In this document: piece after piece, positions 43,927 through 64,000 of the stretch
Layout of the letters: each line of letters begins with the position of its first letter
Numbering within the stretch: the stretch's first letter is position 1
DNA from: an uncultured Rhodospirillaceae bacterium
GTDB lineage: Bacteria; Pseudomonadota; Alphaproteobacteria; UBA8366
NCBI GenBank assembly: GCA_964408805.1
Contig: CAYPAV010000001.1
Span: 408,779-472,778, forward strand
Direction: 5' to 3'
DNA length: 64,000 nucleotides
Notes under the pieces: generated by a model
Told to the model about the DNA's origin: nothing
The model's input: only the letters and a program-made list of their open reading frames with translations
The model's database searches: none
Program-made: the position numbers and the translations under genes

Positions 43927-43982
43927 GGGTTCGTGGGGTGTCGCGCCGATGGCGCATCATTCCAAGACATGTTCGACGATCC

Positions 43983-44156
43983 CCGTGGGAGAGACCCGCG
44001 CCAGTCGCGGGCGCCGAAGGAGCAACCGCCCCGGAATCTCTCAGGCAAAAGGACCGTGGGGAGAGGACACTCTGGAAAGCAGGCGTCTCGCGCGCCTCAC
44101 CGAAGGGGTAAGCCGGCCGGGCCGGTGACACTCTCAGGTTCCACGACAGAGCGGGG
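43983..44156 (+). promoter_or_regulatory. Tandem glycine riboswitch (two aptamers) controlling gcvT-gcvH-gcvP
   Basis: Aptamer 1: GGGAGAG...CGCCGAAGGAGCAA...TCTCTCAGGCAAAAGGACC. Aptamer 2: GGGAGAGG...CACCGAAGGGGTAA...CTCTCAGGTTCCACGACAGAGCGG. Both carry the conserved GGAGAG / CCGAAGG / CTCAGG...GAC cores, and the pair lies immediately 5' of gcvT. Confidence 0.88.
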
Positions 44157-44212: not shown

Positions 44213-45346
44213 ATGGCGGGAACCGCCGAAAAATCCGAAACCGATGGGTCCGTCCAGGCGACGCCCCTTCATGCCCTGCATGTGGAATTGGGTGCCAAGA
44301 TGGTGCCGTTCGCCGGATACGAGATGCCGATCCAATATCCAGCGGGCATCCTCCGGGAACACCTCCACACGCGCGAGGCCGCAGGGCTCTTCGATGTCTC
44401 GCATATGGGCCAAGTCGATCTGATCGGCGACGGCGCCGCCGCGGCGTTGGAGCGGCTGGTCCCGGGCGACATATTGGGTCTTGGCGAGGATCGCACCCGA
44501 TACACCCAATTTACCAACGAGTGCGGCGGCATTCTCGACGATCTCATGGTGACCAAGGCAGGCGACCGGCTGCGGCTGGTCGTCAACGCGGCTTGCAGAG
44601 AGGCCGACATCCGCCATTTGCGGGACGGTCTCGGTGCCGGTATCGAGGTGGCGGAACGCGCCGATCGGGCGCTGGTGGCGCTTCAAGGACCGGCCGCGGC
44701 GGCCGTCCTCGGCCGTCATGGCGCGGCCGCGCTGGCGACCATGCCCTTCATGGGTTTCGTGGAATCTTCGGTCGGTGGGATCGACTGTCTGGTCTGGCGG
44801 TCGGGGTATACCGGCGAGGACGGCTACGAAATATCTGCTGCGGCGGAGGATGCGGAAGCGCTCGCCAGGTTGCTGCTCGCCGAGGCGGAAGTGATGCCCA
44901 TCGGGCTCGGGGCCCGCGATTCGCTGAGGCTTGAGGCCGGACTCTGCCTTCACGGCCACGATATCGACGAGACGACGACGCCGATCGAGGCCGGTCTATT
45001 GTGGTCCATTGGAAAACGGCGGCGCGAGGCCGGCGGGTTTCCGGGTGACGGCGTGATCCAGAGTCAGATTGAGGACGGGGTGGATCGCCGCCGCGTCGGC
45101 ATTCGTCCCGAGGGCCGCGCGCCCGCGCGCGAAGGCACCGAACTTCGCGACGCGGCGGATACGCCGGTCGGCGAAATCACCAGCGGCGGCTTCGGTCCCA
45201 GCGTGGGCGGACCGGTCGCAATGGGTTACGTGACGACGGCGTCGGCGAAGGACGCGACACCGTTGACGGCGATGGTCCGCGGCCGGCCGCTTGCGGCCCG
45301 CGTGGCCCGCCTGCCCTTCGTCGAACAGCGCTACTACCGGGGATAA
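44213..45346 (+). CDS. gcvT: Glycine cleavage system aminomethyltransferase T
   Basis: 377 aa with TPLHALHVELGAKMVPFAGYEMPIQY and FDVSHMGQV blocks. GAAGGA lies before the ATG. Confidence 0.95.
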   Translation: MAGTAEKSETDGSVQATPLHALHVELGAKMVPFAGYEMPIQYPAGILREHLHTREAAGLFDVSHMGQVDLIGDGAAAALERLVPGDILGLGEDRTRYTQFTNECGGILDDLMVTKAGDRLRLVVNAACREADIRHLRDGLGAGIEVAERADRALVALQGPAAAAVLGRHGAAALATMPFMGFVESSVGGIDCLVWRSGYTGEDGYEISAAAEDAEALARLLLAEAEVMPIGLGARDSLRLEAGLCLHGHDIDETTTPIEAGLLWSIGKRRREAGGFPGDGVIQSQIEDGVDRRRVGIRPEGRAPAREGTELRDAADTPVGEITSGGFGPSVGGPVAMGYVTTASAKDATPLTAMVRGRPLAARVARLPFVEQRYYRG

Positions 45347-45364
45347 GGAGAGGGAGACCAAATC

Positions 45365-45739
45365 GTGGCGGATATGCACTTTACCAAGGACCATGAATGG
45401 ATTCGGGTGGCGGACGATATCGGCATCGTCGGCATCACCGAATTCGCCCAGGAGCAGCTCGGCGATATCGTTTTCGTCGAATTGCCGGAAAAAGGCGCGG
45501 TATTCGCCAAGGGCGAACAGGCGGTGGTGATCGAATCGGTGAAGGCGGCCTCGGAAGCCTACGCGCCGGTCGGCGGCGAAATCGTCGAGGTCAACGGCAT
45601 GCTCGAGGATCAACCGGAGACCGTAAATGCCGAAGCGGAAGCGGGCGGCTGGTTCTTCAAGATCAGAATAACCGATCCGAGCGAGCTCGACTCCCTGCTC
45701 GACGAGGCGGCCTACAAGGAATTAACCGCCGACGCATAG
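45365..45739 (+). CDS. gcvH: Glycine cleavage system protein H
   Basis: About 121-124 aa with FTKDHEWI and the lipoyl-lysine block [11 protein letters not shown]. The start is GTG 45365 or ATG 45374. Confidence 0.93.
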
Positions 45740-45772
45740 AACGCGCCGCTGCGAGCGAAGAGAGGAAGGGCC

Positions 45773-48640
45773 ATGGCGAATACGGAACCGACGTTGGAGG
45801 CATTGGAGGCCCGGGACGACTTCGTCGGCCGCCATATCGGCCTTCGCTGGGGCGATATCGAAGACATGCTGGCGGTGCTCGGGCTCGATTCGATCGATGC
45901 GATGATCCGGACGGCGGTCCCGGAATCGATCCTCGATCCTCGTCCCCTGGACCTGCCGGAGAGCCGCCCCGAGACGGTTGTTCTAACCGAGCTCCGCGCC
46001 ATGGCCGACGCCAACAAGCCGATGACGTCACTTATCGGCATGGGTTACTACAATTCCACGACGCCGACGGTCGTGCTGCGGAACGTTCTCGAAAATCCCG
46101 GCTGGTACACCGCCTATACCCCCTATCAGCCCGAGATTTCGCAAGGCCGCTTGGAGGCGTTGCTGAACTTCCAGACCATGGTCTCCGATCTAACCGGCCT
46201 GGAAATCGCCAACGCCTCGCTCCTCGACGAGGCGACCGCGGCGGCCGAGGCGATGACTATGTGCCGCCGGGTCAACAAACACGACAGCAACGGCTTCTTC
46301 GTCGCCGAGGATTGCCACCCCCAAACCATTGCCGTGCTGCAAACACGGGCGGCCCCGCTCGGCATCGAGGTGATTGTCGGCGATCCCATGCGCGAGCTCG
46401 ATCCCGCCGCTGTCTACGGCGCCTTGCTGCAATATCCCGGCAGCGGCGGCGCGGTTCCCGACTATCGTGTCCTCGCCGAGCAACTCAAGGCGGCGGGGGC
46501 GATGGTCGTCGTGGCGACCGACCTACTGGCGCTGACCTTACTGAGTCCGCCCGGGGAATGGGGGGCGGACGTCGCCGTCGGCAGCGCCCAGCGGTTCGGG
46601 GTGCCGCTCGGCTTCGGCGGGCCGCATGCGGCGTTTTTCGCGACCAGCGACAAGCACAAACGGGCGATGCCGGGGCGCCTTGTCGGCGTCTCGATCGACA
46701 GCGGCGGGCGGCCCGCCCTTCGCCTAGCCCTGCAGACTCGCGAACAGCATATCCGGCGCGAGAAGGCGACCAGCAATATCTGCACGGCGCAGGTCCTGCT
46801 CGCGGTGATGGCCGGTCTCTACGCGGTTTATCACGGGCCCGAGCGGTTGCGAACGATCGCGACCCGAACCCATCGCCTGACCGCGATCCTTGCGGAAGGG
46901 CTTCGACGCTCCGGAATCGAGGTCCTCAACGAGACCTTTTTCGATACCTTGACGATTCGCGTGGACGCGGCGGCGCCCGTTCATGCGCGCGCGCGGGACC
47001 GGGGCTACAATCTCCGGGAAGTCGACGAAACGACGATCGGCTTGTCGCTCGACGAGCGCGGCACCCGTCACGACGTGACCGCCCTTTGGGACATTCTTAC
47101 GGATGCGTCCCCGGACCTGGCGGCGATCGAAGCCGACCGACCCTCCGCGCTACCGGACGATCTTCGTCGCGAAAGCGACTTTCTCACCCATCCGGCCTTC
47201 AACAGTCATCACGCCGAGACAGAGATGCTCCGTTATCTGCGCCAGTTGCAGCAGAAGGACATCGCCCTCGACCGCTCGATGATCCCGCTCGGCTCCTGCA
47301 CCATGAAGCTGAATGCGACGACCGAGATGATCCCCATCAGCTGGCCTGAATTCGCCGACATTCATCCTTTCGTGCCGGCCGACCAGGCGGCGGGTTATCA
47401 CCGGCTGATCGACGGGCTGGAGGACGCGCTCTGCCGAATCACGGGTTTCGCCGCGGTCTCGCTCCAACCGAATGCGGGCTCGCAGGGCGAGTTCGCGGGC
47501 CTGCTGGCGATCCGCCGCTATCACGAGAGCCGGGGCGAGGGCGAGCGCGACGTCTGCCTCATCCCAAGCTCGGCCCACGGCACCAACCCCGCCAGTGCCG
47601 TCATGGCGGGCATGCGGGTGATCGTGGTCGACTGCGATGAGGACGGTAATATCGATCTGGCCGATCTGGTGGAAAGGGCGGCGGCGCACGGCGCCGCACT
47701 CGCCGCGCTGATGGTGACCTATCCCTCGACCCACGGCGTCTTCGAGGCCGGCATCCGCGAGATCTGCGAGATCGTCCATGGTCATGGCGGGCAGGTCTAT
47801 ATGGACGGGGCCAATCTGAACGCACTGGTCGGTCTCGCACGGCCCGGCGAATTCGGTCCCGACGTGGCCCATCTCAATCTTCACAAGACCTTCTGCATTC
47901 CCCATGGCGGCGGCGGTCCCGGAGTCGGGCCGATCGGTGTCGCGGCCCATCTCGAGTCCTTCCTGCCGGGACCCGCGCATCTTTCGGGCGACTCCCCGCC
48001 GGTTTCGGCGGCCCCTTGGGGCAGCGCGGGCATCTTGGCGATTTCTTGGACCTATATCGCCTTGATGGGAGCGGGCGGCCTCAAGCGCGCGACAGAGGCC
48101 GCAATCCTGAGCGCCAATTACATCGCGCGGCGGCTCGAGCCGCATTATCCCGTCCTCTACAAGGGGGCGGGCGGCCTGGTGGCGCATGAATGCATCATCG
48201 ACGTTCGCGCGTTCAAGGACAGCGCCGGCATCGGCGTCGACGATATCGCGAAGCGGCTGATGGATTACGGGTTTCACGCACCGACCATGTCCTGGCCGGT
48301 CGCGGGAACGTTGATGATCGAGCCGACCGAGAGCGAGCCCAAATCCGAACTCGACCGGTTCTGCGAAGCGATGATCGCGATCCGTGCTGAAATCGGCGAC
48401 ATCGAATCGGGCGCCGCCGGCCGCGAGGACAACCCCCTGGTCCTGGCGCCGCATACGCTGGACGATCTCGTCGGCGACTGGGATCGCGCCTATACCCGCG
48501 AGACCGCCGCCTATCCGGTACCGGCGCTACGGGCGGACAAATACTGGCCGCCGGTCAACCGGGTCGACCAAGTCCACGGGGACCGCCATCTCGTCTGCGC
48601 CTGTCCGCCCGTCGAGGCCGATCTCGACGCGGCCGAGTAG
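45773..48640 (+). CDS. gcvP: Glycine dehydrogenase (decarboxylating), single-chain P protein
   Basis: 955 aa with [21 protein letters not shown] and the PLP-lysine block [16 protein letters not shown]. Confidence 0.95.
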
Positions 48641-52970: not shown

Positions 52971-54149
52971 TCAAATAGATGTGACCTTTCGCGCCACCAT
53001 ATCCTCGATCGCGGCGGGGTCGTAACCGTGCGCCGCCAAAATCTCCTCGCTGTGCTCGCCGATCCCCGGTGAATGGGCCAGGTCGTTCTGCTGATCGAAC
53101 GGCGTTAGGCCCGGCACGTTCGGCACCGGAACGCGGCCGACACCGGGATGATCGAGCCAGGAGATCAGCCCCGTTGCCTTGACCTGTGGATGTTCGAGGA
53201 ATTCGAGGTAGCTGTTGACGCGCTCGTGCATGATCCGCGCCTCGATCAGCTTCGCCGACAGTTCCTCACAGGTCTGCCGTTTGAAGGCCGCGCGAATGGC
53301 CGGCATGATCTCGGCCTCGTGTTCCAGTCGTTCGGCATTGGTGCCGAAGCGGGGATCGCTGCCGATCTCGGGAATCCCGAGCAGGTCGCAGAGCTTCGGA
53401 AATTCCGCATCGCGGAACATCAGGATGGTGATGTAACCGCCGTCCTTGGCCTCGATCACGCCATAGGGCACGCGGCCCACCATATAGGCGCCCTTGGTGA
53501 GATGGACCATCATCATGCGAACGGCGCCGAGACAGGCCGCGCCCTGCATCAAATTGGTCTCGATCAGGCAGCCCTTGTCCTCGGATTGCCGGGCGTAAAG
53601 CGCCGCCGAGAGCGCTTGAAAGGCATAAAGCGCAGTCGCCATGTCGCAGATCACGACGCCGATCCGGTGCGGCAGACCATCGCCGCCTTCATTGACCGAC
53701 ATCAGTCCCGTGAAGGCCTGCAGCACCGGGTCCATGGCCGGGCGCTCGCGGAACGGGCCCGTCGTCCCGAATCCGGAGACCGAAAGATAGATCGCCCGGG
53801 GGCTAATCTTCGCGACCTCTTCGTATGAAAAGCCGAGGCGCTCGGTGACCCCGGGGCGGAAGTTCTCGATGAAGACATCGGCGTCCTCGATCAGCCGGCG
53901 AAGCGCCGCCTTGCCGCCTTCTTCCTTCAGGTCGAGCGAGATCGCCCGCTTGCCGAGATTGGCGGCAACCGAGAAGGCTGAGTGATTGTCGTAATCCTGG
54001 CTGATGAACCGGCCCCACTCGCCGTCCAGCGGTTCGACCTTGATCACCTCGGCGCCGTATTGCGCCATCAACATGCCCGCATAAGGGCCGGATACCCCCT
54101 GGCTGATATCGATGACCTTCAGCCCCGCAAAGGGTGCTTCGTAACCCAT
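52971..54149 (-). CDS. CoA-transferase family III (CaiB/BaiF-type)
   Basis: 392 aa with LKVIDISQGVSGPYAGMLMAQYGAEVIKVEP, ENFRPGVTERLG and the catalytic-Asp region VVICDMATA. Confidence 0.88.
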   Translation of the reverse strand: MGYEAPFAGLKVIDISQGVSGPYAGMLMAQYGAEVIKVEPLDGEWGRFISQDYDNHSAFSVAANLGKRAISLDLKEEGGKAALRRLIEDADVFIENFRPGVTERLGFSYEEVAKISPRAIYLSVSGFGTTGPFRERPAMDPVLQAFTGLMSVNEGGDGLPHRIGVVICDMATALYAFQALSAALYARQSEDKGCLIETNLMQGAACLGAVRMMMVHLTKGAYMVGRVPYGVIEAKDGGYITILMFRDAEFPKLCDLLGIPEIGSDPRFGTNAERLEHEAEIMPAIRAAFKRQTCEELSAKLIEARIMHERVNSYLEFLEHPQVKATGLISWLDHPGVGRVPVPNVPGLTPFDQQNDLAHSPGIGEHSEEILAAHGYDPAAIEDMVARKVTSI

Positions 54150-54252
54150 GATTCGAACTCGCTGCCCTGTTCTCGGTGCCTCAATATGCTATATGCCTCT
54201 AGCGGAGGCGATGGCAATCGGGTCTTCGTTTCCGGAGCGGGAGAGTGCCGGC

Positions 54253-55449
54253 ATGGACTTGCAGTTTTCCAACGAACACAGCGACTTTCAGCGCGAGGTC
54301 CGCGACTTCATTGAGGCGAAGCTGCCGCATGACATTCGCGACAAGGTCGCGCGCGGCCTGAAGCTCCACAAGGACGATTACGTGCGCTGGAACAAGATCC
54401 TGCATGAGAAGGGTTGGAGTGCCCCGGCCTGGCCAAAGAAGTACGGCGGCGCCGAGTGGAGCGCCGTTCAGCGCTATATCTTCGAGGAAGAGACCGCCCG
54501 CGGCCATTGTCCGCGTCTGATCGCCTTCGGCCTCACCATGGTCGGTCCGGTGATCTACACCTTTGGCAGCGAGGCCCAGAAGGAACGCTTCCTGCCGCCG
54601 ATCCTTTCGGCCGAGACCTTCTGGTGTCAGGGCTATTCCGAACCGGGCTCGGGCTCCGATCTCGCCTCGCTGCAAACCAAGGCGGTGCGGGACGGCGACC
54701 ACTATATCGTCAACGGCCAGAAGACCTGGACCACGATGGCGCAGATGGCGGATTGGATCTTCTGTCTGGTCCGCACCTCCAGCGAAGGCAAGAAGCAGGA
54801 GGGTATTTCCTTCCTGCTGATCGACATGAACACGCCGGGGGTCGAGGTCCGTCCGATCATCACCATGGATGGCGCCCACGAGGTCAACAGCACCTATCTC
54901 ACCGATGTCAGGGTGCCGGTCGAGAACCGCGTCGGCGAGGAGAACAAGGGCTGGACCTATGCCAAGTTCCTGCTCGGCAACGAACGGTCGGGGATCGCCC
55001 GGGTTGGCGCCTCGAAGGCCCGGCTCCAGCGTCTGAAGGAAATCGCGACGGTGGAGAAGTCGGGCGGGCGGCCGTTGCTCGAGGACAGCGACTATCGGCG
55101 CCGGATCGCCGATGTGGAGATCGGCTTGAAGGCGCTCGAATATACCGAACTTCGTTTCCTGATGGCCGCCGCCGCCGGCAACGAGCCGGGTGCGGAGGCC
55201 AGCATGCTCAAGATTCGCGGCACCGAAATCCAGCAGGAGATTTCCGAGCTTCTGATGAAGGCGATGGGTATCTACGCCCAGCCGCATTTGCCGGAAGCGA
55301 TGGAATACGGTTGGAACGAGGATGCCATCGGACCCGAGGCGACCCCCGTCGCCACGCCGACCTATCTCAATATGCGGAAGACGTCGATCTACGGCGGTAC
55401 CAACGAAATTCAGAAGAACATCATGGCCAAGATGGTGCTGGGGCTCTAA
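54253..55449 (+). CDS. Acyl-CoA dehydrogenase family protein
   Basis: Start at ATG 54253 (GGGAGAG upstream), 398 aa. Blocks WCQGYSEPGSGSDLASL, GQKTWTT and C-terminal IYGGTNEIQKNIMAK. Confidence 0.88.
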   Translation: MDLQFSNEHSDFQREVRDFIEAKLPHDIRDKVARGLKLHKDDYVRWNKILHEKGWSAPAWPKKYGGAEWSAVQRYIFEEETARGHCPRLIAFGLTMVGPVIYTFGSEAQKERFLPPILSAETFWCQGYSEPGSGSDLASLQTKAVRDGDHYIVNGQKTWTTMAQMADWIFCLVRTSSEGKKQEGISFLLIDMNTPGVEVRPIITMDGAHEVNSTYLTDVRVPVENRVGEENKGWTYAKFLLGNERSGIARVGASKARLQRLKEIATVEKSGGRPLLEDSDYRRRIADVEIGLKALEYTELRFLMAAAAGNEPGAEASMLKIRGTEIQQEISELLMKAMGIYAQPHLPEAMEYGWNEDAIGPEATPVATPTYLNMRKTSIYGGTNEIQKNIMAKMVLGL

Positions 55450-55482
55450 CCCGCTCCGGCCGGCCGAAAGGGAGATCAAGAC

Positions 55483-56616
55483 ATGGACTTCTCGCTTACC
55501 GAAGAGCAACAGCTTCTCAAGGACAGCGTCGACCGCTTCGTGCGGGAGAACTACGAATTCGAGGACCGGCGCAAGCTGGCCGCGACGACGGAAGGGTATA
55601 GCGAGGAAAATTGGAAGCAGATGGCGGAACTCGGCTGGCTCGGCGTTGCCTTGCCCGAGGAATATGGCGGCATCGGCGGCGGCGCCACCGAGATCATGGT
55701 GATCATGGAAGGCTTCGGGCGCGGCCTCGTGCTGGAACCGTTTTTCGCCAGCGTCGTGCTCGGCGGCAATCTGATCGTCGAAGCCGGGAGCACTGCCCAG
55801 AAGGAAGATCTGCTGCCGAAACTCGCCGATGGTGGATTGAAGCTCGCCTTCGCCTATGCGGAGCGCCAGGCCCGGTTCGACCTGTTCGATGTCGCCACCA
55901 CGGCCGAGAAGGTTGGCGACGGCTATGTCCTCAAGGGCGACAAGGGGGTCGTCTTCGGGGCCGGAACGGCGGATAAGATCATCGTCTCGGCGCGGACCTC
56001 CGGCGGCCAGCGCGACACGGACGGCATCACGCTCTTCCTGGTCGATAACGATGCCGATGGGTTGGAGCGGCGCGACTACGCCACTAACGACGCCGGCCGC
56101 GCTTCGGAGGTCTCGCTCAATGGGGTCAAACTCGGTGCCGACGCGGTGCTGGGTACGGTCGGCGACGGCTATGCGGCGATCGAGGCGGTGGCCGAAAAGG
56201 CGGTCGCGGCCCTTTGCGCCGAAGCGGTCGGCTGCTTCGATGTGCTCAAGGAAGAGACCAATGAATACCTGAAGACCCGCGAGCAGTTCGGCCAGCCGAT
56301 CGGCAAGTTCCAGGTGTTGCAACATCGCATGGTCGATATGCTGATCAATTGCGAGGAAGCCCGTTCGATGTGCTACGTCGCGACCGCCATGGTCGACAGC
56401 GACGACGCGGCGGAGCGCGCCCGCTCGATCGCCGCCGCGAAGGCGCAGATCGGCAAGAGCGGCCGCTTCGTCGGGCAGAACGCCATCCAGCTACATGGCG
56501 GCATGGGCATGACCGACGAGTTGAAGGTCGGCCACTACTTCAAGCGCGCGACCCTGATCGACCTCACCTTCGGCGACCAGGATCATCACACCAAGCGCTT
56601 CGCCGAGATGACCTGA
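55483..56616 (+). CDS. Acyl-CoA dehydrogenase family protein (second, adjacent paralog)
   Basis: 377 aa with MDFSLTEEQQLLKDSV, KFQVLQHRMVDM and IQLHGGMGMTDE blocks. Confidence 0.88.
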   Translation: MDFSLTEEQQLLKDSVDRFVRENYEFEDRRKLAATTEGYSEENWKQMAELGWLGVALPEEYGGIGGGATEIMVIMEGFGRGLVLEPFFASVVLGGNLIVEAGSTAQKEDLLPKLADGGLKLAFAYAERQARFDLFDVATTAEKVGDGYVLKGDKGVVFGAGTADKIIVSARTSGGQRDTDGITLFLVDNDADGLERRDYATNDAGRASEVSLNGVKLGADAVLGTVGDGYAAIEAVAEKAVAALCAEAVGCFDVLKEETNEYLKTREQFGQPIGKFQVLQHRMVDMLINCEEARSMCYVATAMVDSDDAAERARSIAAAKAQIGKSGRFVGQNAIQLHGGMGMTDELKVGHYFKRATLIDLTFGDQDHHTKRFAEMT

Positions 56617-57149: not shown

Positions 57150-59108
57150 TTAAAGCACTAGGCCCAGCAGATGGCCACCCTGGATCGCCGACATCAGGTC
57201 GCGGGGCGACTGGCAATCGCCGATGCGGTGGGTGGCGACCCGCCCCTCGAGGTCCTGACTCAATTCGTCCCGGGCGATGCGCGGCGTGGCATGGATCACC
57301 CGCGCAATGTCGTCGATCACGCGGGCATCTTCGGTAAAGACGTTGCGGAGGGTCACGGTGCCGTCCCGGTAATCGGTCAGGTCGTGGGCGGGGAGGATTT
57401 CGACACCCGCCTGATGCAGCCGGCGATGGACGCCGATGGCGCTGCAATAATTCACGTTCCGGGCGATCTCGGGGCGTGGTGTGGCGAGAACGACGCCGGC
57501 ATGGCGGGCCGCAAGCAGATCCGCGATGCCGTAAACCGTCGGGCCATGGTCCATGTCGAAGAGAAGGGCGCGTTCCGACCTCGATGAGGACGTTTCGTCG
57601 GCCGCGATATAATCCCGCGCATCGATCACGGGATCTGCGTTGTCGACGAGGTTCGGCGGCCGGCGCGATCTCGCACCGGTGGCCAGAACCACGATATCGG
57701 GCGCTTCGGCCAGCAGCGCCACCGCCGCAATTCGCGCGCCCAACCGGAAGGTTACACCCGCCGCTTCCGCCATCCGCCGTTGATAGTCGATGATCCCCGC
57801 CATGGCGCTCCGTCCCGGAAGCCGGGCGTCGAGGCGAAGGTTCCCGCCGGGCTCTTCTCCGGCCCCGAACAGGATCACCGCGTGACCGCGCGCCGCCGCA
57901 ACCCAGGCGGCTTCGAGCCCGGCCGGCCCGGCGCCCACGACCAACACGCGGCACGGTGTTTCCGTCGGCGTCAGGCGGGTTTCAGCCTCGGCTTCACCAT
58001 TGGTTCCGAGGTAAGGGTTGTGATGTTCGGCAAGCGGTTTGCCCATATGCACCTCGCCCCAGCACCAGTTGTCGAAGACGCTTGGGCGAATGGTGTCGGA
58101 CCGGCCAGCCTCGGCCTTTCGCGGCCAGGCCGCATCCGCGATCAGCGCCCGTGTGGTACCGACGAGGTCACCATAACCCTCCGCCACGACCTTTTCCGCA
58201 AGATCGGGCGTGCCGATGCGGCCAAGGGCGATCACCGGCACGCCTTTCGCCGCCGCCCGCATGCGCTTCGGAATATCGATGAAATGACCGGGCCGGAAAT
58301 GAAGGTCCGGCACGTGGGTTTCCAGGCTGAGACTGAAATTGCCCTGACCGTAGGCGAAATAGTCGAAATCCCCACTCCCCGCGAGATGGCCAGTCAGGCG
58401 CGCCGCTTCTTCCACGTCGATGCCGCCGGGAACGCCTTCATCCCCCGGCATCTTCAGGCCGACAATGAATCCCGCCCCGCAGTGCGCGCGGATGCCGCCC
58501 GCGATCTCCCGGGCAAAGCGCGCGCGGCCTTCCAGGTCGCCGCCATATCGATCAGTGCGCGTGTTCGACCAGGGGGAGAGGAACTGACCGATCAGATAAC
58601 CGTGCGCGCCGTGCAGTTCCACGCCGGCGAAGCCACAGCGATGGAGGCGTTCGGCGGTCGCGACATAGGCGGCGGCGATCCGTTCGATCTCGTCCGCCGC
58701 CATGACGTGCGGCACGGTCCAGCTCAAGGCGTCGGGCAGGTCGGAGACGCCCATCGGCGACTTGGTCGGATGCCAAAGCTGCTGGCGGCCGGGATGCCAG
58801 AGCTGGCCGACCAACAACCCGCCCGCTTCCTCGACGGCCTCCGCCGTTCGCCGGAATCCCTCCTCGTTGGTGGCGTCGAAGCCGGTGACGATCGCCTGCT
58901 GGGCCAGGGCTTCCGCGTCGACCGCGATGATCTCCGACACCAGCAGTCCAACACCGCCCTTGGCGCGTTCGACCAGAAAATTCGTCCAGCGATCGGTGAC
59001 CTGGTTGGCCCGGCCGTAATTGGTCAGTGTCGCCGGTAGGACCGTGCGGTTTCGTACCCGCCGGCCGGCGATTTCGATCGGCGAGAAGAGCCGCGGGTAG
59101 GGAGACAT
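57150..59108 (-). CDS. Two-domain flavin oxidoreductase: N-terminal Old Yellow Enzyme TIM barrel + C-terminal FAD/NAD(P)-binding domain (FadH/NADH-oxidase-like architecture)
   Basis: 652 aa with LFSPIEIAGRRVRNR, VELHGAHGYLIGQFLSPWSNTRTDRYGG (OYE) and VLVVGAGPAGLEAAWVAAARGH (Rossmann). The inter-domain segment reads IRPSVFDNWCWGEV, where relatives carry a multi-Cys Fe-S motif. Confidence 0.85.
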   Translation of the reverse strand: MSPYPRLFSPIEIAGRRVRNRTVLPATLTNYGRANQVTDRWTNFLVERAKGGVGLLVSEIIAVDAEALAQQAIVTGFDATNEEGFRRTAEAVEEAGGLLVGQLWHPGRQQLWHPTKSPMGVSDLPDALSWTVPHVMAADEIERIAAAYVATAERLHRCGFAGVELHGAHGYLIGQFLSPWSNTRTDRYGGDLEGRARFAREIAGGIRAHCGAGFIVGLKMPGDEGVPGGIDVEEAARLTGHLAGSGDFDYFAYGQGNFSLSLETHVPDLHFRPGHFIDIPKRMRAAAKGVPVIALGRIGTPDLAEKVVAEGYGDLVGTTRALIADAAWPRKAEAGRSDTIRPSVFDNWCWGEVHMGKPLAEHHNPYLGTNGEAEAETRLTPTETPCRVLVVGAGPAGLEAAWVAAARGHAVILFGAGEEPGGNLRLDARLPGRSAMAGIIDYQRRMAEAAGVTFRLGARIAAVALLAEAPDIVVLATGARSRRPPNLVDNADPVIDARDYIAADETSSSRSERALLFDMDHGPTVYGIADLLAARHAGVVLATPRPEIARNVNYCSAIGVHRRLHQAGVEILPAHDLTDYRDGTVTLRNVFTEDARVIDDIARVIHATPRIARDELSQDLEGRVATHRIGDCQSPRDLMSAIQGGHLLGLVL

Positions 59109-59115
59109 GCTTCGC

Positions 59116-59484
59116 TCAGGTATCGCGCGCGCGCCGGGCCGCCTCGAGAACCGCCTCCGTTACCCGGACCGGCAGGGTTAAGGCAAGAAAGGACAGCGCC
59201 TTGCCGTGCCCGTCGAGATTGAGGCTGCTGTTGACCCCGCCCTGCAGCACGTCATCGAGGACAAAATTGAACGCCGCCAGCTTCGGCAGGTCGTAGCGCA
59301 CCGCCCGACTGGCGCCGCGATGGGCGAAGACCTCCAGCATCCGCGCCTCGGTCGCCTGCTCGGCGATCGGCGCATAGCCGCTGGGGTCATAGGGGATGAT
59401 GCTGACGTTCAACCGGTCGCCCTTGTCGCCGGTGCGGCCATGGGCGATTTCGTAGAGCGGGACTTCGACGGTGGCCTCAGTCAT
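59116..59484 (-). CDS. DUF4387-like small protein (partner of AtuA/DUF1446 proteins)
   Basis: Start at ATG 59484, overlapping the DUF1446 gene end by 8 nt. 122 aa, beginning MTEATVEVPLYEIAHGRTGDKGDRLNVSIIPYD. The rest of the 199-aa ORF is a spurious upstream extension. Confidence 0.7.
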   Translation of the reverse strand: MTEATVEVPLYEIAHGRTGDKGDRLNVSIIPYDPSGYAPIAEQATEARMLEVFAHRGASRAVRYDLPKLAAFNFVLDDVLQGGVNSSLNLDGHGKALSFLALTLPVRVTEAVLEAARRARDT

Positions 59485-60856
59485 CGCCGGCCTCGACCAG
59501 GCCGACTTTCGCCGAGACCGCGGCGCGCGGGACCAGGCAGGACCCGGTCTTGACCCGCCAGGTGGTCGAGCGACGAACGCCGGCCCCGCCCGCGGGACCG
59601 CTGCAATAGAGCGATTCGACCTCGCGCGCCACCAGGGCGGCGGTCGCCTCGTCGGCCGCATTGGCAGCGACCCGAAGGCGGACATCCTCGGGTGTTTCGG
59701 CGTCGAATGCGGCATTCAAGTCGCCGCTATCGCCGTCGAAGACGCTGACCGTGCCGATGAGGTCGGTCCGGAGATCGCAATCGAGCCCCAACACCTCGAC
59801 TCGTTCCTTCATGGTCTTGGCCGCCAATTGCGCGCGCGCCAATGCGTTCCGGCCGGCATAGGAAATCTCCCCCTCGCCGAGCCAGCCGCCATCGACGCTG
59901 ACCGTGGTCTTCAAGGTCTCGGGCGCGGGCCGACCCTTGGCGCCATGGATGCGGACCCGGTCCGGCCCGACCGCTTCGACCTCGACCTCGGAAATGTCCA
60001 AGGTCACATCCGGGGTCAAATAGGCGCGGGGATCGGAAATCTCGTAGAGGATCTGCTCCTTCACCGTTCGCGTGTTCACGACGCCGCCGGTGCCCTCGGG
60101 CTTGGTGACGATGAAACTCCCGTCCGGCTCCACTTCGGCGATGGGATAGCCCATCATGGCCATGCCGGACACGTCTTTCCGGCCGGGGTCGGCGTGGTAG
60201 CCGCCGGTGACCTGGGCGCCGCACTCCAACACATGACCCGCCAGGACGCCCGCCGCCATTAGGTCCCAATCGTCGTCGGCCCAGCCGAAATAATGCATCA
60301 AGGGCCCTAGGGTGAGGGCGGAATCGGTGACCCGTCCCGTGACCACTACATGGGGATCGAGAGCCAGCGCATCGGCGATCGGCCGCGATCCGAGATAGAC
60401 GTTGGCGGCGATGATCTCGGTATTGGCGAGGTCGAGCTGAACCTCTTCCTCCCAGGCCTCGGTCTCGATCCCGCGGATGCGATCGCGCAGGTCGTCGCCC
60501 TCGACGACCGCGATCCGGAGTCCCTCTATCCCGAGTTCTTCGGCGAGCCGGTGCAGCCGTTTCGCGGCACCGCGCGGGTTGGCGGCGCCGAAATTGCCGA
60601 TGATCGGCACACCGCTCTCGACACAGCGCCGCAGGACCGGGCCGAGGAACCCCGCGAGGTCCGCGGTATACCCCGCATCCGGGTCGGATTTCCGTTCCCG
60701 CTGGGCGATTGCGAGGGTGCGTTCGGCGAGCGTCTCGTAGCCGAGCGCCGCCGGCACGCCGGCCGCGATCAGGGCGTCGGCCACGGGCGCGCCCACATCC
60801 ATCCGATCGTTGGCGAAGCCGGCAGCGTTGCCGATGTGAACCTTGGGTGGAGTCAT
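59477..60856 (-). CDS. DUF1446 / AtuA-like (acyclic terpene utilisation protein A family) protein, biochemical function unknown
   Basis: 459 aa. N-terminus IGNAAGFANDRMD, plus YETLAERTLA, GANPRGAA and TGRVTDSALTLGPLMHYFGW blocks as I remember for this family. Confidence 0.75.
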   Translation of the reverse strand: MTPPKVHIGNAAGFANDRMDVGAPVADALIAAGVPAALGYETLAERTLAIAQRERKSDPDAGYTADLAGFLGPVLRRCVESGVPIIGNFGAANPRGAAKRLHRLAEELGIEGLRIAVVEGDDLRDRIRGIETEAWEEEVQLDLANTEIIAANVYLGSRPIADALALDPHVVVTGRVTDSALTLGPLMHYFGWADDDWDLMAAGVLAGHVLECGAQVTGGYHADPGRKDVSGMAMMGYPIAEVEPDGSFIVTKPEGTGGVVNTRTVKEQILYEISDPRAYLTPDVTLDISEVEVEAVGPDRVRIHGAKGRPAPETLKTTVSVDGGWLGEGEISYAGRNALARAQLAAKTMKERVEVLGLDCDLRTDLIGTVSVFDGDSGDLNAAFDAETPEDVRLRVAANAADEATAALVAREVESLYCSGPAGGAGVRRSTTWRVKTGSCLVPRAAVSAKVGLVEAGDD

Positions 60857-60860
60857 ACTC

Positions 60861-61700
60861 TCAAACCTTCTTCTTGGCGGCGCCGACAGCGAAATCCTGG
60901 CAGGTCAGGCCGGCGCGCAAGCCCCAAAGCCGCGCCGTCTCATTGATATGACTTACCACGCCGCTCTCCCAAAGCGAGCGGGCGTCGCCGATCCGCGCCG
61001 TCTTACCGTCGATCACCGCCCCCGCGATGCCCTTGTCGTCGAGCAGCGGCAGGCGGCTGAGCCCGGCCTGGTCTCGGCCGATACCGGCGTCATGGAAGAC
61101 CGCCGCCTTTACGGGCTGGTAGATGGCGGTGCCGCTCGCCCGGTTGGCCGCCAGCACGCCGCCGTGCGAGCCGGTGATGACGATCCGCCCGGCATCCTCC
61201 GGGATCAGGAGGGAGGCCGAATCGAGACCCCAGACCTCCGGCTCGCCGGGCTCGGCGCGCAGCTTGTAGCGGGCCTCCTCGAACGGGTCGGGCGCCATCG
61301 TCGCGACCGGGCCGAGGCGCATCTTCCGGGCGGCCTCCAGGGCCGCTTCCCCGACGGCGCAGCCGAGCGCCCCCGCCGCCTTGTTGGTATAGCTGACGAT
61401 GCCGCGCTGGATCATGTCCTCGCCGTCGCCGATGCGGCCCGTCATGTGCGCGATCGTCGCCGCCGCGATGCCGAAGGCGTCCAGGTAATCGAGGCTGGCG
61501 ATCCCCGCCTTATCCTTGCCGATCCCCGCATCGTTCAGGATGACGCCCCGCGCCGCCGCCTTGGCGATCAGATAACCGGGATAGACGCCGCCATGGCTGC
61601 CGGCCACGATGACGGAATCCTCATGCTCGGGCGCCGGTTTGGTGACCGTATCGAGCACCCAGATCGGCACGTCGTCGTCGGAGGCATTGCGGCCGGCCAT
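60861..61700 (-). CDS. Unknown-function protein built from two tandem copies of a ~120-aa domain (GSHGG / DAGIG[KR]D / RIGD motifs)
   Basis: 279 aa. Half 1 (IWVLDT...VIVAGSHGGV...ILNDAGIGKDKAGIASLDYLD..GRIGDGEDM..GIVSYTN) aligns by eye with half 2 (VWGLDS...IVITGSHGGV...VFHDAGIGRDQAGLSRLPLLD..ARIGDARSL..GVVSHIN). AAGGAG SD upstream. The stop lies 4 nt before the DUF1446 ATG. Confidence 0.65.
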   Translation of the reverse strand: MAGRNASDDDVPIWVLDTVTKPAPEHEDSVIVAGSHGGVYPGYLIAKAAARGVILNDAGIGKDKAGIASLDYLDAFGIAAATIAHMTGRIGDGEDMIQRGIVSYTNKAAGALGCAVGEAALEAARKMRLGPVATMAPDPFEEARYKLRAEPGEPEVWGLDSASLLIPEDAGRIVITGSHGGVLAANRASGTAIYQPVKAAVFHDAGIGRDQAGLSRLPLLDDKGIAGAVIDGKTARIGDARSLWESGVVSHINETARLWGLRAGLTCQDFAVGAAKKKV

Positions 61701-61735
61701 TTTCCATGGGCTCCTTGTTCGGAATTGACCCCAAA

Positions 61736-61764
61736 GATATAACGCACCGCGAAATTTGTCGGAA
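61736..61764 (-). promoter_or_regulatory. Candidate internal promoter (TTCCGA-17 nt-TATATC on the minus strand) ahead of the duplicated-domain/DUF1446/DUF4387/OYE genes
   Basis: In the only sizeable gap (67 nt) of the cluster: -35 at 61764-61759, -10 at 61741-61736, 35 nt before ATG 61700. Confidence 0.25.
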
Positions 61765-61767
61765 ACC

Positions 61768-62793
61768 CTAATCCACTTTGATCAGCAGCTTGCCGGTATT
61801 CTCGCCGCGATAGAGCATTTCGATGGCGCCGGGGGCGTGGTCCAGCCCGTCCAAGATATGTTCCTGGTAGGTCAGCTTTCCGTCGCGCACCCAATCGGCC
61901 AACTTGTCGATCGCCTCGCCGTAGCGATCGATGTAATCGAACAGCAGGAACCCCTGCATCCGGGCGCGCTTGACCAGCAGATGGCGATGTACCCGGGGGC
62001 CGGCGGGCCAAGGCACCCAATCGGCCACCGACGCGGTTCCGCAGATCGAAATCCGCGCGCCCATCGCCAAATGTTCCATCACCGCGTCGCTGATCGGGCC
62101 GCAGGTATTGTCGAAATAGACATCGACCCCGTCGGGGCAGGCCGCGCCGATCTCCCGGACCAGATCGCCGCCGCTCTTGTAGTCGATGGCCGTGTCGTAG
62201 CCGAAGCTCTCGCGGCAAAGCGCGATCTTTTCAGGCCCGCCGGCGATGCCGACGGTGCGGCAGCCGAGGATCTTTGCGATCTGGCCGACGCAGGATCCGA
62301 CCGAACCCGCCGCCGTAGAGACGACGACCGTCTCGCCCGCTTTCGGGTCGGTGATATCGATCAGGCCGAAATAGGCGGTGACCCCGTTCACCCCCAGGAT
62401 GCCGAGCGCCAGTGAGATCGGCAGGTCCGTCTCCCGCACCTCGCGGGTGACGCTCTCTCCCGTGGCGGCCGCGAAGCGCTGCCAGCCGAACATGCCGGCC
62501 ACGATGGCCCCTTCGGCGTAATCCGGGTTGCGGGACGCCACCACCTCGCCCACGGCGAACGACCGCATGACGTCGCCGACCGGGACGGGTGGGGAATAAT
62601 TCGGCGCGTCGTTGACCCAGCCCCGCATCGCCGGATCGACCGAAAGAAAATGATTGTGGACGAGGATTTCGCCGTCCGCGAGCTCGGCGACCGGTGCCTC
62701 CTCGACCCGAAAATGGCCGGGGGTCGGCACCCCTTTCGGGCGGTCGGCGAGAACGACGCGCCGGTTGACCAGATTGGCGGGATCGACGGTCAT
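61768..62793 (-). CDS. NADP-dependent oxidoreductase, MDR superfamily (alkenal/one or enone reductase-like, zinc-independent)
   Basis: 341 aa with ETVVVSTAAGSVGSCVGQIAKILGCRTVGIAGG (AxxGxxG) and C-terminal LYRGENTGKLLIKV, typical of the YncB/CurA/leukotriene-B4-dehydrogenase subgroup. Confidence 0.85.
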   Translation of the reverse strand: MTVDPANLVNRRVVLADRPKGVPTPGHFRVEEAPVAELADGEILVHNHFLSVDPAMRGWVNDAPNYSPPVPVGDVMRSFAVGEVVASRNPDYAEGAIVAGMFGWQRFAAATGESVTREVRETDLPISLALGILGVNGVTAYFGLIDITDPKAGETVVVSTAAGSVGSCVGQIAKILGCRTVGIAGGPEKIALCRESFGYDTAIDYKSGGDLVREIGAACPDGVDVYFDNTCGPISDAVMEHLAMGARISICGTASVADWVPWPAGPRVHRHLLVKRARMQGFLLFDYIDRYGEAIDKLADWVRDGKLTYQEHILDGLDHAPGAIEMLYRGENTGKLLIKVD

Positions 62794-62805
62794 TGGGCTC
62801 TCCCC

Positions 62806-64000
62806 TCAGGCGGCGAGCAGCTCCGCGGATTTGGCCCGCGCCGCCGCCGCTTCTTCATTCGCCTCCGCGGCATCGAGCGCATCCGCATAGAGCGCCCAGG
62901 AGGGGCCGCTCGTCGGATTGACGGTTGTGCGCTCGGCCAGGAGGGCACGGGCAAGACTGTCCCGACCGTCCTTGATCGCCGCATGGATCAGCATCCGCAC
63001 CCAGACATCGCGCTGTGCGTGGCTGCCGCCGAGCGGCACCATGCGATAACGCGTATCCATCATGATCTCGATCACCCGGGCGTAATCACGGTCGGCATGG
63101 GCGAGAATCGCTTCGGCGACCGGAATGCCGGCATTGCGATAGACGCCGGCGACCGTCACGGCGTCGCCCGGATTGTCCGCGGCGAAAGCGCGCATCGAGG
63201 CCAGCATCTCGTCCGCTTCCGCGCGCCGCCCAGAGAGGGCCAGCGCCATGATGTAATGCAGATCATTGAAGGGGCGAAGGCGGTGGTCTATGCGGCCGGC
63301 GGAAATCTCCGCGACCGGTTGCCAGCGGTCGCCCACATCGAGCCCCAACATATCGAGACGCATCAGCATGCCGGCCGCGTTGCAGATATCGGTGTTGTCT
63401 TCCGAGGGCTCGGCCCAGAACTCCTCGTCGAAGGCGGCCATCACCTTGTCGAATTGTTCCAGCTCCAAATAGCAGAGTGCGCGGTGCCACCACATATGAT
63501 GCGCGAAGAGGCCGCGTTCGCGCCAGACCGCCTGGTGTTCGTCGACCCAGTTCATGCCTTCCTGGCGGCGGCCCTGCATCTCCAATACGTGGGAGACCGC
63601 GTGGCCGGCCCAAATGTCCTGCTCGTTGATCTCGACGGCGCGCTTTCCGATCGGCTCCGCCGCCGCGTATTCTCCGTTCTCCTCCAAGGCAAAGGACCGG
63701 CAGCCGAGCACGAACCCGTAGCCCGGCATCGACTCGTCCCAGCGCGGCATCACGCGGGCCGTCGAATCCCGCATCAGTGGCAGATCGCCGATGAAGAAAT
63801 GCAGGAAGTTCGCCAGCTTGATCGCCAGGATATCATGCGGGTGATCGACCAGGATCGCATCCCAGATAGCGTTGGTCCGCCGCAGATCGCCGGCGCACCA
63901 GGCGCCGAGAGCGGCCACATGCATCCGTTCACGCTCGCTGCCCTGATCGGCCATGGCTTCCGCCTTCGCAAGGGCGTCGAAGCTCTGCTCGGTCAGATGG
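62806..64000 (-). CDS. Tetratricopeptide-repeat protein, TTC38-like (N-terminus outside the window)
   Basis: The frame stays open upstream of ATG 63954 to the window edge (..HLTEQSFDALAKAEAMADQG..). Helical repeat protein with RERMHVAALGAW..W.AILVDHPHDILAIKLA, as in the TTC38 family. Confidence 0.65.
   Translation of the reverse strand, partial: HLTEQSFDALAKAEAMADQGSERERMHVAALGAWCAGDLRRTNAIWDAILVDHPHDILAIKLANFLHFFIGDLPLMRDSTARVMPRWDESMPGYGFVLGCRSFALEENGEYAAAEPIGKRAVEINEQDIWAGHAVSHVLEMQGRRQEGMNWVDEHQAVWRERGLFAHHMWWHRALCYLELEQFDKVMAAFDEEFWAEPSEDNTDICNAAGMLMRLDMLGLDVGDRWQPVAEISAGRIDHRLRPFNDLHYIMALALSGRRAEADEMLASMRAFAADNPGDAVTVAGVYRNAGIPVAEAILAHADRDYARVIEIMMDTRYRMVPLGGSHAQRDVWVRMLIHAAIKDGRDSLARALLAERTTVNPTSGPSWALYADALDAAEANEEAAAARAKSAELLAA

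Follow-up and report, generated by a model that had tools for sequence, protein, structure and literature searches.

A lineage-specific operon around an AtuA-type protein pair in an uncultured marine alphaproteobacterium: a possible CmlAB-like lyase with recruited partner genes

We analysed an operon that lies on the minus strand, at positions 57150-64000, of a 64,000-nucleotide stretch of DNA (the window) on contig CAYPAV010000001.1 of an uncultured Rhodospirillaceae bacterium. Tentatively, with a probability that we put at roughly 0.45, we read it as a catabolic operon peculiar to the lineage of this marine, uncultured alphaproteobacterium, arranged round an acetate-releasing lyase that resembles the citramalate lyase CmlAB and furnished with recruited genes. 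In this operon the genes of an internally duplicated protein (dup), an AtuA large subunit, a small subunit and an OYE-type flavoprotein form a translationally coupled block; ahead of it, and pointing the same way, lie the genes of a putative oxygenase, a tetratricopeptide repeat (TPR) protein and an MDR reductase. The locus is neither an atu cluster nor a cml/methylaspartate cluster.

The AtuA-type pair and citramalate lyase

The large subunit is encoded by gene 4 (59477-60856, minus strand, 459 amino acids (aa)), counting in the direction of transcription. It matched the PF07287 AtuA model with 452.5 bits (cutoff 22.8; E 1.8e-135), over model positions 1-435 of 437. The gene 4 sequence alone found no match in the Protein Data Bank (PDB); a fold search and a profile search revealed CmlA. 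When an AlphaFold2 (AF2) model of gene 4, built from 45 homologues (pLDDT 88), was compared with known structures by Foldseek, the best match was chain 9evf_A (E 1.2e-22, TMq 0.70, TMt 0.71), and the runner-up was 19 orders of magnitude weaker. Entry 9evf, released in October 2025, carries the title 'Citramalate lyase - ADP - pyruvate complex'. Similarly, the profile of the AtuA clade of the window matched the sequence of 9erq_A (E 9.4e-6), which its depositors named 'Acyclic terpene utilization AtuA family protein' as well as 'Citramalate lyase, subunit A (cmlA)'.

Chains A and B of 9erq have near-identical counterparts in Escherichia coli O157:H7, ECs_0760 (456 aa) and ECs_0759 (105 aa, DUF4387). 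Profile-profile alignment (hhalign) of the window clade with ECs_0760 gave a probability of 95.7% and an E of 1e-8 over 256 columns, in which the motifs GGRxxDxA, LECxA and LYExSDP, invariant in the window clade, were aligned with CmlA. RefSeq still lists these two genes in the Sakai strain (locus L174, 21934-23618) as '3-methylaspartate ammonia-lyase' and 'acyl-CoA synthetase', names which are out of date because the proteins are near-identical to CmlA and CmlB (PDB 9ERQ). ECs_0760 is also the DUF1446 gene noted by Kronen et al. 2015, at a time when what became of citramalate in that pathway had no explanation (PMC4682846).

For the reaction of CmlAB we relied on the titles of the PDB entries and on a preprint, according to which Cml (cmlAB) splits citramalate in a direct reaction that yields acetate and pyruvate. 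For AtuA, the literature gives a tentative assignment as a lyase that releases acetate and converts 3-hydroxy-3-isohexenylglutaryl-CoA to a 3-oxoacyl-CoA and acetate. The two reactions are alike, in that acetate is released from a tertiary 3-hydroxy acid and a carbonyl is left. With CmlAB deposited as an AtuA-family protein and its small subunit, the AtuA family is no longer an orphan, and the statement in an earlier note on this DNA, made from the sequence alone, that its activity was still unknown is superseded (PDB 9ERQ/9EVF). The possibility, also raised there, that the family already had a reaction explaining all six genes seen in the window was borne out in part: a reaction is named for CmlAB, but it does not account for all six genes here. 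The family is very large (at least 7587 matches at E <= 1e-10), and both a structure and a named reaction are available for one member only. By analogy with that member, it is plausible that genes 4 and 5 encode a CmlAB-like lyase for another substrate.

Gene 5 (59116-59484, minus strand, 122 aa), the start of which overlaps the AtuA stop by 8 nucleotides (nt), encodes the small subunit. It had been taken for a DUF4387 protein. Instead, it matched PF23544 AtuA_ferredoxin (E 1.2e-30) and gave no match to PF14330 DUF4387, whereas the true CmlB matched PF14330 with E 2.6e-39. In Pseudomonas, where AtuA is a fused protein, the PF23544 domain makes up its C-terminal portion. Gene 5 alone found no match among PDB sequences.

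Operon layout, partner genes and neighbourhoods

The earlier note had described six co-directional minus-strand genes within 57150-64000 with intergenic gaps of 12, 67, 4, -8 and 7 nt, in exact agreement with the open reading frame (ORF) list. The six genes of its proposed operon stand, but the window end truncates gene 1 and a seventh gene lies upstream, outside the window. Both could be followed in a metagenome contig (L001; JGI 3300008735, 350 kb) with sequence identical to the window locus. Gene 1, encoding the TPR-like protein, is represented in the window (62806-64000, minus strand) by the 3' 1195 nt of a 463-aa gene (listed ORF 62806-63954(+)); the full gene occupies L001 7504-8895, with its start at about window position 64197. 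The seventh co-directional gene, encoding a 404-aa PF04909 (Amidohydro_2) protein, lies 29 nt upstream of gene 1 at L001 6260-7474, equivalent to window positions 64227-65441. It is followed further upstream by a housekeeping fused anthranilate synthase gene, and the operon probably begins with this PF04909 gene. Terminator-like sites within the operon were not more frequent than in shuffled sequence and every one fell inside coding sequence. This, together with the short gaps, agrees with the earlier view that the tightly packed genes plausibly form one transcript. GC content at third codon positions (GC3) was even across the operon genes (0.78-0.89; 0.81 in gene 1), and horizontal transfer of the operon was therefore unsupported.

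Conservation was followed in two sets of loci. An alignment-based scan anchored on AtuA, with one genome per species, gave 80 loci of 45-76% identity, on which the L001 proteins were mapped by tblastn; a single-sequence scan of genome contigs with the window AtuA had given no match. A metagenome scan anchored on dup gave another 80 loci. The small subunit was next to AtuA in 78 of the 80 genome loci, the other two contigs ending early, while dup was next to AtuA in two and the OYE in one. Homologues of the MDR, TPR and PF04909 proteins were found beside the core in none of the 80 genome and 80 metagenome loci, the nearest exception being in L052, where an MDR homologue lies on the other strand at a distance of about 6.5 kb. 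Thus, the six-gene order is peculiar to this lineage, and conservation is nested: AtuA with its small subunit is universal, dup is added in close relatives, and the OYE in a few loci. The earlier note had named loss of the order in relatives as grounds for refuting its view; since the order is absent from all 160 loci, its picture of a self-contained module is unsupported, and the cluster is a mosaic.

Among the 72 loci in which an AtuA gene was called, a gene for a TctC carboxylate-binding protein lay on the same strand in 33 and a divergent LysR gene was present in 31, other neighbours being sporadic, with the caution that these counts are approximate as they come from a GC3-based gene caller that miscalled the TPR gene. 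Betaproteobacteria and Acetobacteraceae (L012-L087, for example L054 10001-12752 and L073 8942-11667) often carry a minimal cassette of divergent LysR, AtuA, small subunit and TctC, a composition that suggests direct cleavage of an imported hydroxy-carboxylate. More generally, the TctC and LysR neighbours suggest that the wider family acts on free acids. The core is flanked by TauD-family dioxygenases in the marine relatives, so that a hydroxylase recurs beside the lyase. In three other loci (L185 and L186, 3039-9750; L093, 2157-8162; AtuA identity 64-71%), the pair has upstream of it genes for an aldehyde dehydrogenase and for an ADP-forming, SucC/SucD-like CoA ligase, and in L185 a histidine-phosphatase-family gene sits where dup would be. 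Some AtuA relatives have a zinc alcohol dehydrogenase (Zn-ADH) gene downstream. Partners of the atu type were found in none of the 160 related loci. Around the operon itself, Pfam annotation of 20 kb revealed no geranyl-CoA carboxylase, hydratase or CoA ligase beside atuA, and a crude motif scan of the 58 called window genes found neither a biotinyl (AMKM) nor an ATP-grasp (GGGGKG) motif; the absence of the atu partner genes, noted before, was thereby upheld.

Gene 3 (60861-61700, minus strand, 279 aa) encodes dup, and its stop lies 4 nt upstream of the AtuA gene. As had been stated, the protein is duplicated and of no recognisable family: self-alignment showed its halves to be 37% identical (E 2e-21), and no Pfam or NCBIfam family scored above threshold. 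The nearest model, PF08827 DUF1805, gave 15 bits (E 0.031) against a cutoff of 29.5. Weak PF08827 matches to both halves nevertheless recurred in 51 of 62 dup homologues, the best at 2.6e-7 and all below the Pfam cutoff, and the SHG, NDAGxG and RIGD motifs are invariant and repeated in both halves. The AF2 model of dup had a pLDDT of 96.4, and its Foldseek search against the PDB gave nothing better than E 0.19, with TA1206 (PDB 1qw2) as a marginal match. A single-sequence search of the PDB was empty, the dup profile found among PDB sequences only a chance-level match to DNA polymerase IV, and a literature search on DUF1805 found nothing.

The neighbours of dup are of two kinds. In 10 metagenome loci dup (62-71% identity) adjoins and precedes the AtuA pair, usually with an HMG-CoA-lyase-like gene next after the pair, and with genes for IclR, TauD dioxygenases, enolase-superfamily proteins, glyoxalase and family III CoA-transferase in the surroundings. 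In at least 26 loci of L107-L172, dup homologues of 49-58% identity directly precede the gene of an acetolactate-synthase-like thiamine diphosphate (ThDP) enzyme of about 580 aa; the two genes lie together, with gaps from -4 nt upward, also in L004 (8001-10565), L006 and L183 (8001-10573). Genes for E1 alpha/beta dehydrogenase are often divergent from this dup-ThDP pair. These gene associations place one dup family with two unrelated kinds of C-C-cleaving or C-C-forming enzymes, namely ThDP enzymes and AtuA lyases. That a tandem DUF1805-like protein should have either of two enzymes as its partner is a modestly new point.

Gene 6 (57150-59108, minus strand) encodes the OYE flavoprotein, with an Oxidored_FMN domain at residues 7-338 (E 1.4e-53), a Pyr_redox_2 domain at residues 387-617 and a GAGPAG motif at 392-397. 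Pfam thus confirmed the fusion of an OYE barrel with a FAD/NAD domain, as it did the AtuA and MDR assignments. The protein aligned end to end with 2-naphthoyl-CoA reductase NCR (6qkg, 2e-62) and FadH (1ps9, 2e-58), and scored 487 bits against the NCBIfam model mycofact_OYE_2 ('mycofactocin system FadH/OYE family oxidoreductase 2', cutoff 793). The Fe-S motif, which had seemed to be missing in the earlier note, is indeed lost: positions 343/346/349/361 read S, D, C and E, so that one of the four cysteines is kept. For comparison, we took 131 full-length proteins from the 150 nearest cluster representatives of a 1.8-billion-protein library, and the orthologues from L009 and L106. Among the 134 aligned OYEs, cysteine was present at the first and last positions (343 and 361) in 130 (about 97%) and at all four in about 110. 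The proteins without the cysteines were the three AtuA-linked OYEs and one of 49% identity from another context. The AtuA-linked orthologues, 68% identical and with the same S-D-C-E pattern, directly follow the small subunit in L009 and L106 only. The sequences thus point to a real, rare and derived loss of the Fe-S site. The HGAHGY motif (residues 166-171; His-x-x-His-x-Tyr), which we take from YqjM-type OYEs to provide the His pair and the proton-donor Tyr, is kept in gene 6, L009 and L106. GxGxxG is likewise kept, and the Glu after it that usually binds the ADP ribose is Gly or Ala, with Gly in gene 6. Judged by these residues, the OYE is probably a simple FMN ene-reductase in which electron relay through the C-terminal domains has been lost. 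A FadH-like flavoprotein without the Fe-S cluster would be informative on electron flow in that family, and the rarity of the clade is another modestly new point.

The sole other Fe-S-less relative found (P0361, 49% identity; L181 4055-6025) has the pattern A-T-S-E and belongs to an SDR-glyoxalase-OYE operon beside LysR, ABM and TctC genes, with no AtuA. A role of the OYE as electron donor to the oxygenase was considered and is not favoured, as the OYE travels with the AtuA core where TauD replaces the oxygenase of the present operon.

The PF04909 protein had as its best PDB relatives PtmU3 (5.8e-26), DitZ (1.9e-18), AibH and SfbO-type oxygenases, which rank above every decarboxylase or hydratase. 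It possesses D-x-H (D11-M-H13) and D-x-P-H-x-D (DYPHFD). The motifs D-x-H and D-x-P-H-x-D/E define the superfamily of amidohydrolase-related dinuclear oxygenases (AROs), which carry out C-H hydroxylation, and, as the ARO paper states, the hydrolases and decarboxylases of PF04909 that have been characterised do not have them (PMC13154177). From its relatives and motifs, the gene therefore probably encodes a PtmU3/DitZ-type dinuclear Fe/Mn oxygenase. A LigJ-type hydratase or a decarboxylase was rejected, since AROs are closest and both ARO motifs are present.

Gene 2 (61768-62793, minus strand, 341 aa) matched ADH_N_2 (1.2e-37) and ADH_zinc_N (9.4e-21) in Pfam. It aligned over its full length with the CurA model NF058644 at 366 bits, below the equivalog cutoff of 440, and scored 234 bits with the B4_12hDH model, below the cutoff of 580. 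By these domain and model matches it is assigned as an MDR NADPH alkenal/one (enone) reductase of the CurA/PTGR1/YncB type, a family member and not an orthologue. The AtuA pair is thus flanked, as the earlier note had it, by two different families of C=C reductases, MDR and OYE. Gene 1, called TTC38-like in the earlier note, gave only a sub-threshold TPR_14 match in Pfam and NCBIfam, neither of which has a TTC38 model; a literature search on bacterial TTC38 found nothing, and gene 1 had no relative in the PDB. Its 2118 homologues, mostly of 463 aa, are named only 'tetratricopeptide repeat protein', and those of 60-70% identity occur in three unrelated neighbourhoods, beside sulfatases, gamma-glutamyltranspeptidase or 2-oxoglutarate oxygenases.

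Downstream of the operon lies an HSP20 gene, before which a ROSE thermometer was sought and none was found. Beyond it, within window positions 52971-56616, is a plus-strand gene pair whose products resemble the heteromeric acyl-CoA dehydrogenase PimC/PimD (scores of 509 and 443 bits, each under its cutoff), followed by a family III CoA-transferase gene on the minus strand, that of the operon. These genes may possibly be tied to the operon, for example through dicarboxyl-CoA metabolism. The 708-aa ORF at 54199-56325 (minus strand), antisense to both dehydrogenase genes, is a high-GC artefact and not a gene, and long shadow ORFs of similar kind occur throughout the region. Farther away, a tandem glycine riboswitch (43976-44153, plus strand; Rfam RF00504, 75.8 and 49.1 bits) stands just upstream of three plus-strand ORFs at 44213-48640 (377, 124 and 955 aa), which we read as gcvT, gcvH and gcvP of glycine cleavage from their sizes and position alone.

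Proposed function and its alternatives

In the scheme that we propose, the large AtuA subunit and the small ferredoxin-like subunit, encoded by overlapping genes, would form a heteromeric AtuA-type C-C lyase as the core. By analogy with CmlAB and the tentative AtuA reaction, this lyase would cleave a 3-hydroxy carboxylate with a substituted carbinol carbon to acetate and a ketone or 2-oxo acid, with no biotin carboxylase. The upstream dinuclear oxygenase would install the hydroxyl by C-H hydroxylation, at a carbon beyond ordinary beta-oxidation. The MDR and OYE enzymes may saturate C=C bonds conjugated to a carbonyl or carboxyl group, either in the substrate or in the product of the lyase, before or after cleavage. 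The gene for dup stands a few nt from an AtuA or a ThDP gene, yet is absent from most AtuA loci, and dup would therefore act as an optional accessory partner of the core. We infer the lyase chemistry at this locus, the order of the steps and the service of all seven genes to one substrate. The recurring TauD lends the scheme some support, and the non-recurrence of its specific partners weakens it. As for the substrate class, our guess by analogy is a branched or unsaturated, possibly isoprenoid-derived carboxylic acid, because the characterised AROs DitZ and PtmU3 (PMC13154177) and AtuA are tied to terpenoid acids.

Several points weigh against this scheme. Gene 4 is only about 16% identical to CmlA, and no relation of the gene 5 clade to CmlB was detectable by hhalign (probability 0.5%, not significant); the low identity and the unrelated small subunit mean that the chemistry may differ. 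CmlA was crystallised with ADP, as the title of 9evf tells. AROs often have Rieske ferredoxin partners (PMC13154177), and no Rieske ferredoxin was found near the operon. None of the hydroxylase, TPR and MDR genes recurs by the core, so that their link to it rests on the operon packing of one lineage, and the 67-nt gap before dup contains its own AAGGAG ribosome-binding site, which would permit two transcription units.

The last of these observations on layout lead to a different explanation, in which the hydroxylase, TPR and MDR genes on the one hand and dup, AtuA, small subunit and OYE on the other are juxtaposed independent units acting on different substrates, perhaps from a shared transcript. 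That the first three genes were beside the core in none of the 160 loci speaks for it, as do the TPR homologues in unrelated neighbourhoods, the ribosome-binding site of dup and the occurrence of the core elsewhere with HMG-CoA-lyase-like, SucCD-like, Zn-ADH and TctC partners. However, the upstream genes are separated by just 29 and 12 nt, the 67-nt gap holds no terminator- or promoter-like site, codon composition is uniform, and a hydroxylase of another kind, TauD, recurs by the core in relatives. We regard two independent units as unlikely, though still worth serious thought. The ADP in the CmlA crystal and the 16% identity would also fit a nucleotide-dependent enzyme of kinase- or ligase-like type, merely sharing the CmlA fold, and so would weak Foldseek matches to aspartate kinases and the recurrent linkage to ADP-forming SucCD-like CoA ligases. 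The aspartokinase matches, however, reach a TM score near 0.2, at probabilities between 0.1 and 0.6, the clade-invariant motifs are also present in CmlA, and both activities proposed for the family are acetate-releasing lyases, making such an enzyme improbable.

The strong full-length PF07287 match, the PF23544 small subunit and the literature assignment of AtuA could be taken to mean that the locus is a fragment of the classical Atu pathway, acting on 3-hydroxy-3-isohexenylglutaryl-CoA with the other enzymes elsewhere in the genome. This is very unlikely, as no carboxylase, hydratase or CoA-ligase signature was found in the 64-kb window by the Pfam annotation of 20 kb and the crude motif scan, atu-type partners are missing from the 160 loci, and the commonest neighbours, TctC and LysR, hint at free carboxylates. 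We give slightly less credit still to the idea that the OYE-FAD protein is simply a 2,4-dienoyl-CoA reductase of the ordinary FadH-like sort, serving beta-oxidation together with the adjacent PimC/PimD-like pair and CoA-transferase, and that its place after AtuA is incidental. Its architecture is that of FadH and NCR (E 2e-58 to 2e-62), and the genes of a CoA-transferase and of two acyl-CoA dehydrogenases are to be found within 4 kb. But three of the four Fe-S cysteines for FAD-to-FMN electron transfer, which about 97% of the nearest relatives keep, are gone, the classical OYE His-x-x-His-x-Tyr is kept where FadH differs, and two other loci, which are without those dehydrogenases, also have this protein after the small subunit.

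The lyase-centred scheme may also be taken further. An ARO or TauD hydroxylase paired with an AtuA lyase would then constitute a new O2-dependent 'beta-hydroxylate then retro-aldol' route for the removal of beta-branched or quaternary carbons from carboxylic acids without a CoA-carboxylase, in which dup would be an interchangeable auxiliary of AtuA and of acetolactate-synthase-like ThDP enzymes, and the OYE would be dedicated to the lyase product. In that extended form, which we consider improbable, dup might handle the substrate or enolate, or regulate. Whichever form is taken, the locus is one of many catabolic clusters, and its context (a hydroxylase, two ene-reductases and a partner protein) offers concrete substrates and partners to test.

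Comparison with known systems

What is new here are a divergent AtuA/CmlA member, an Fe-S-less variant of the FadH type and a tandem DUF1805-like family, and not a new kind of system. The OYE fusion has in common with FadH, NCR and TMADH-type enzymes the N-terminal FMN TIM barrel and the C-terminal FAD/NAD(P) domains, but reads S-D-C-E in place of C-x2-C-x2-C...C and has Gly in place of the ribose-binding Glu. With DUF1805/YunC (PF08827), dup shares a weak but recurrent hidden Markov model match in each half, whereas two such domains stand in tandem here. The putative oxygenase, the gene of which lies outside the window, has both signature motifs of AROs such as PtmU3, DitZ, AibH1H2 and SfbO, with no Rieske partner nearby. 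The MDR reductase has the ADH_N_2 and ADH_zinc_N architecture of CurA, YncB and PTGR1 (leukotriene B4 12-hydroxydehydrogenase), while falling below the cutoffs of both models.

The closest counterpart of the core is CmlAB (9ERQ/9EVF; Raoultella planticola cmlAB; ECs_0760/ECs_0759), which likewise consists of an AtuA subunit of about 456-459 aa and a small subunit encoded by an overlapping downstream gene. The large subunits are alike in fold and share GGRxxDxA, LECxA and LYExSDP. In contrast, the small subunit here belongs to PF23544 and CmlB to PF14330, and the two are not alignable; the present locus is devoid of glutamate mutase, methylaspartase and mesaconase, and has an additional partner in the tandem DUF1805-like protein. 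Because of these differences in identity, small subunit, context and partner, the substrate is probably not citramalate. Compared with the AtuA of the atu pathway, the operon offers a full-length match to PF07287 and a match to the AtuA ferredoxin-like domain, but on two separate overlapping genes, whereas the Thauera AtuA is listed as a single protein of 615 aa, and none of atuB-H lies near the operon. As with CmlAB, the chemistry proposed for that AtuA frees acetate from a tertiary 3-hydroxy acid.

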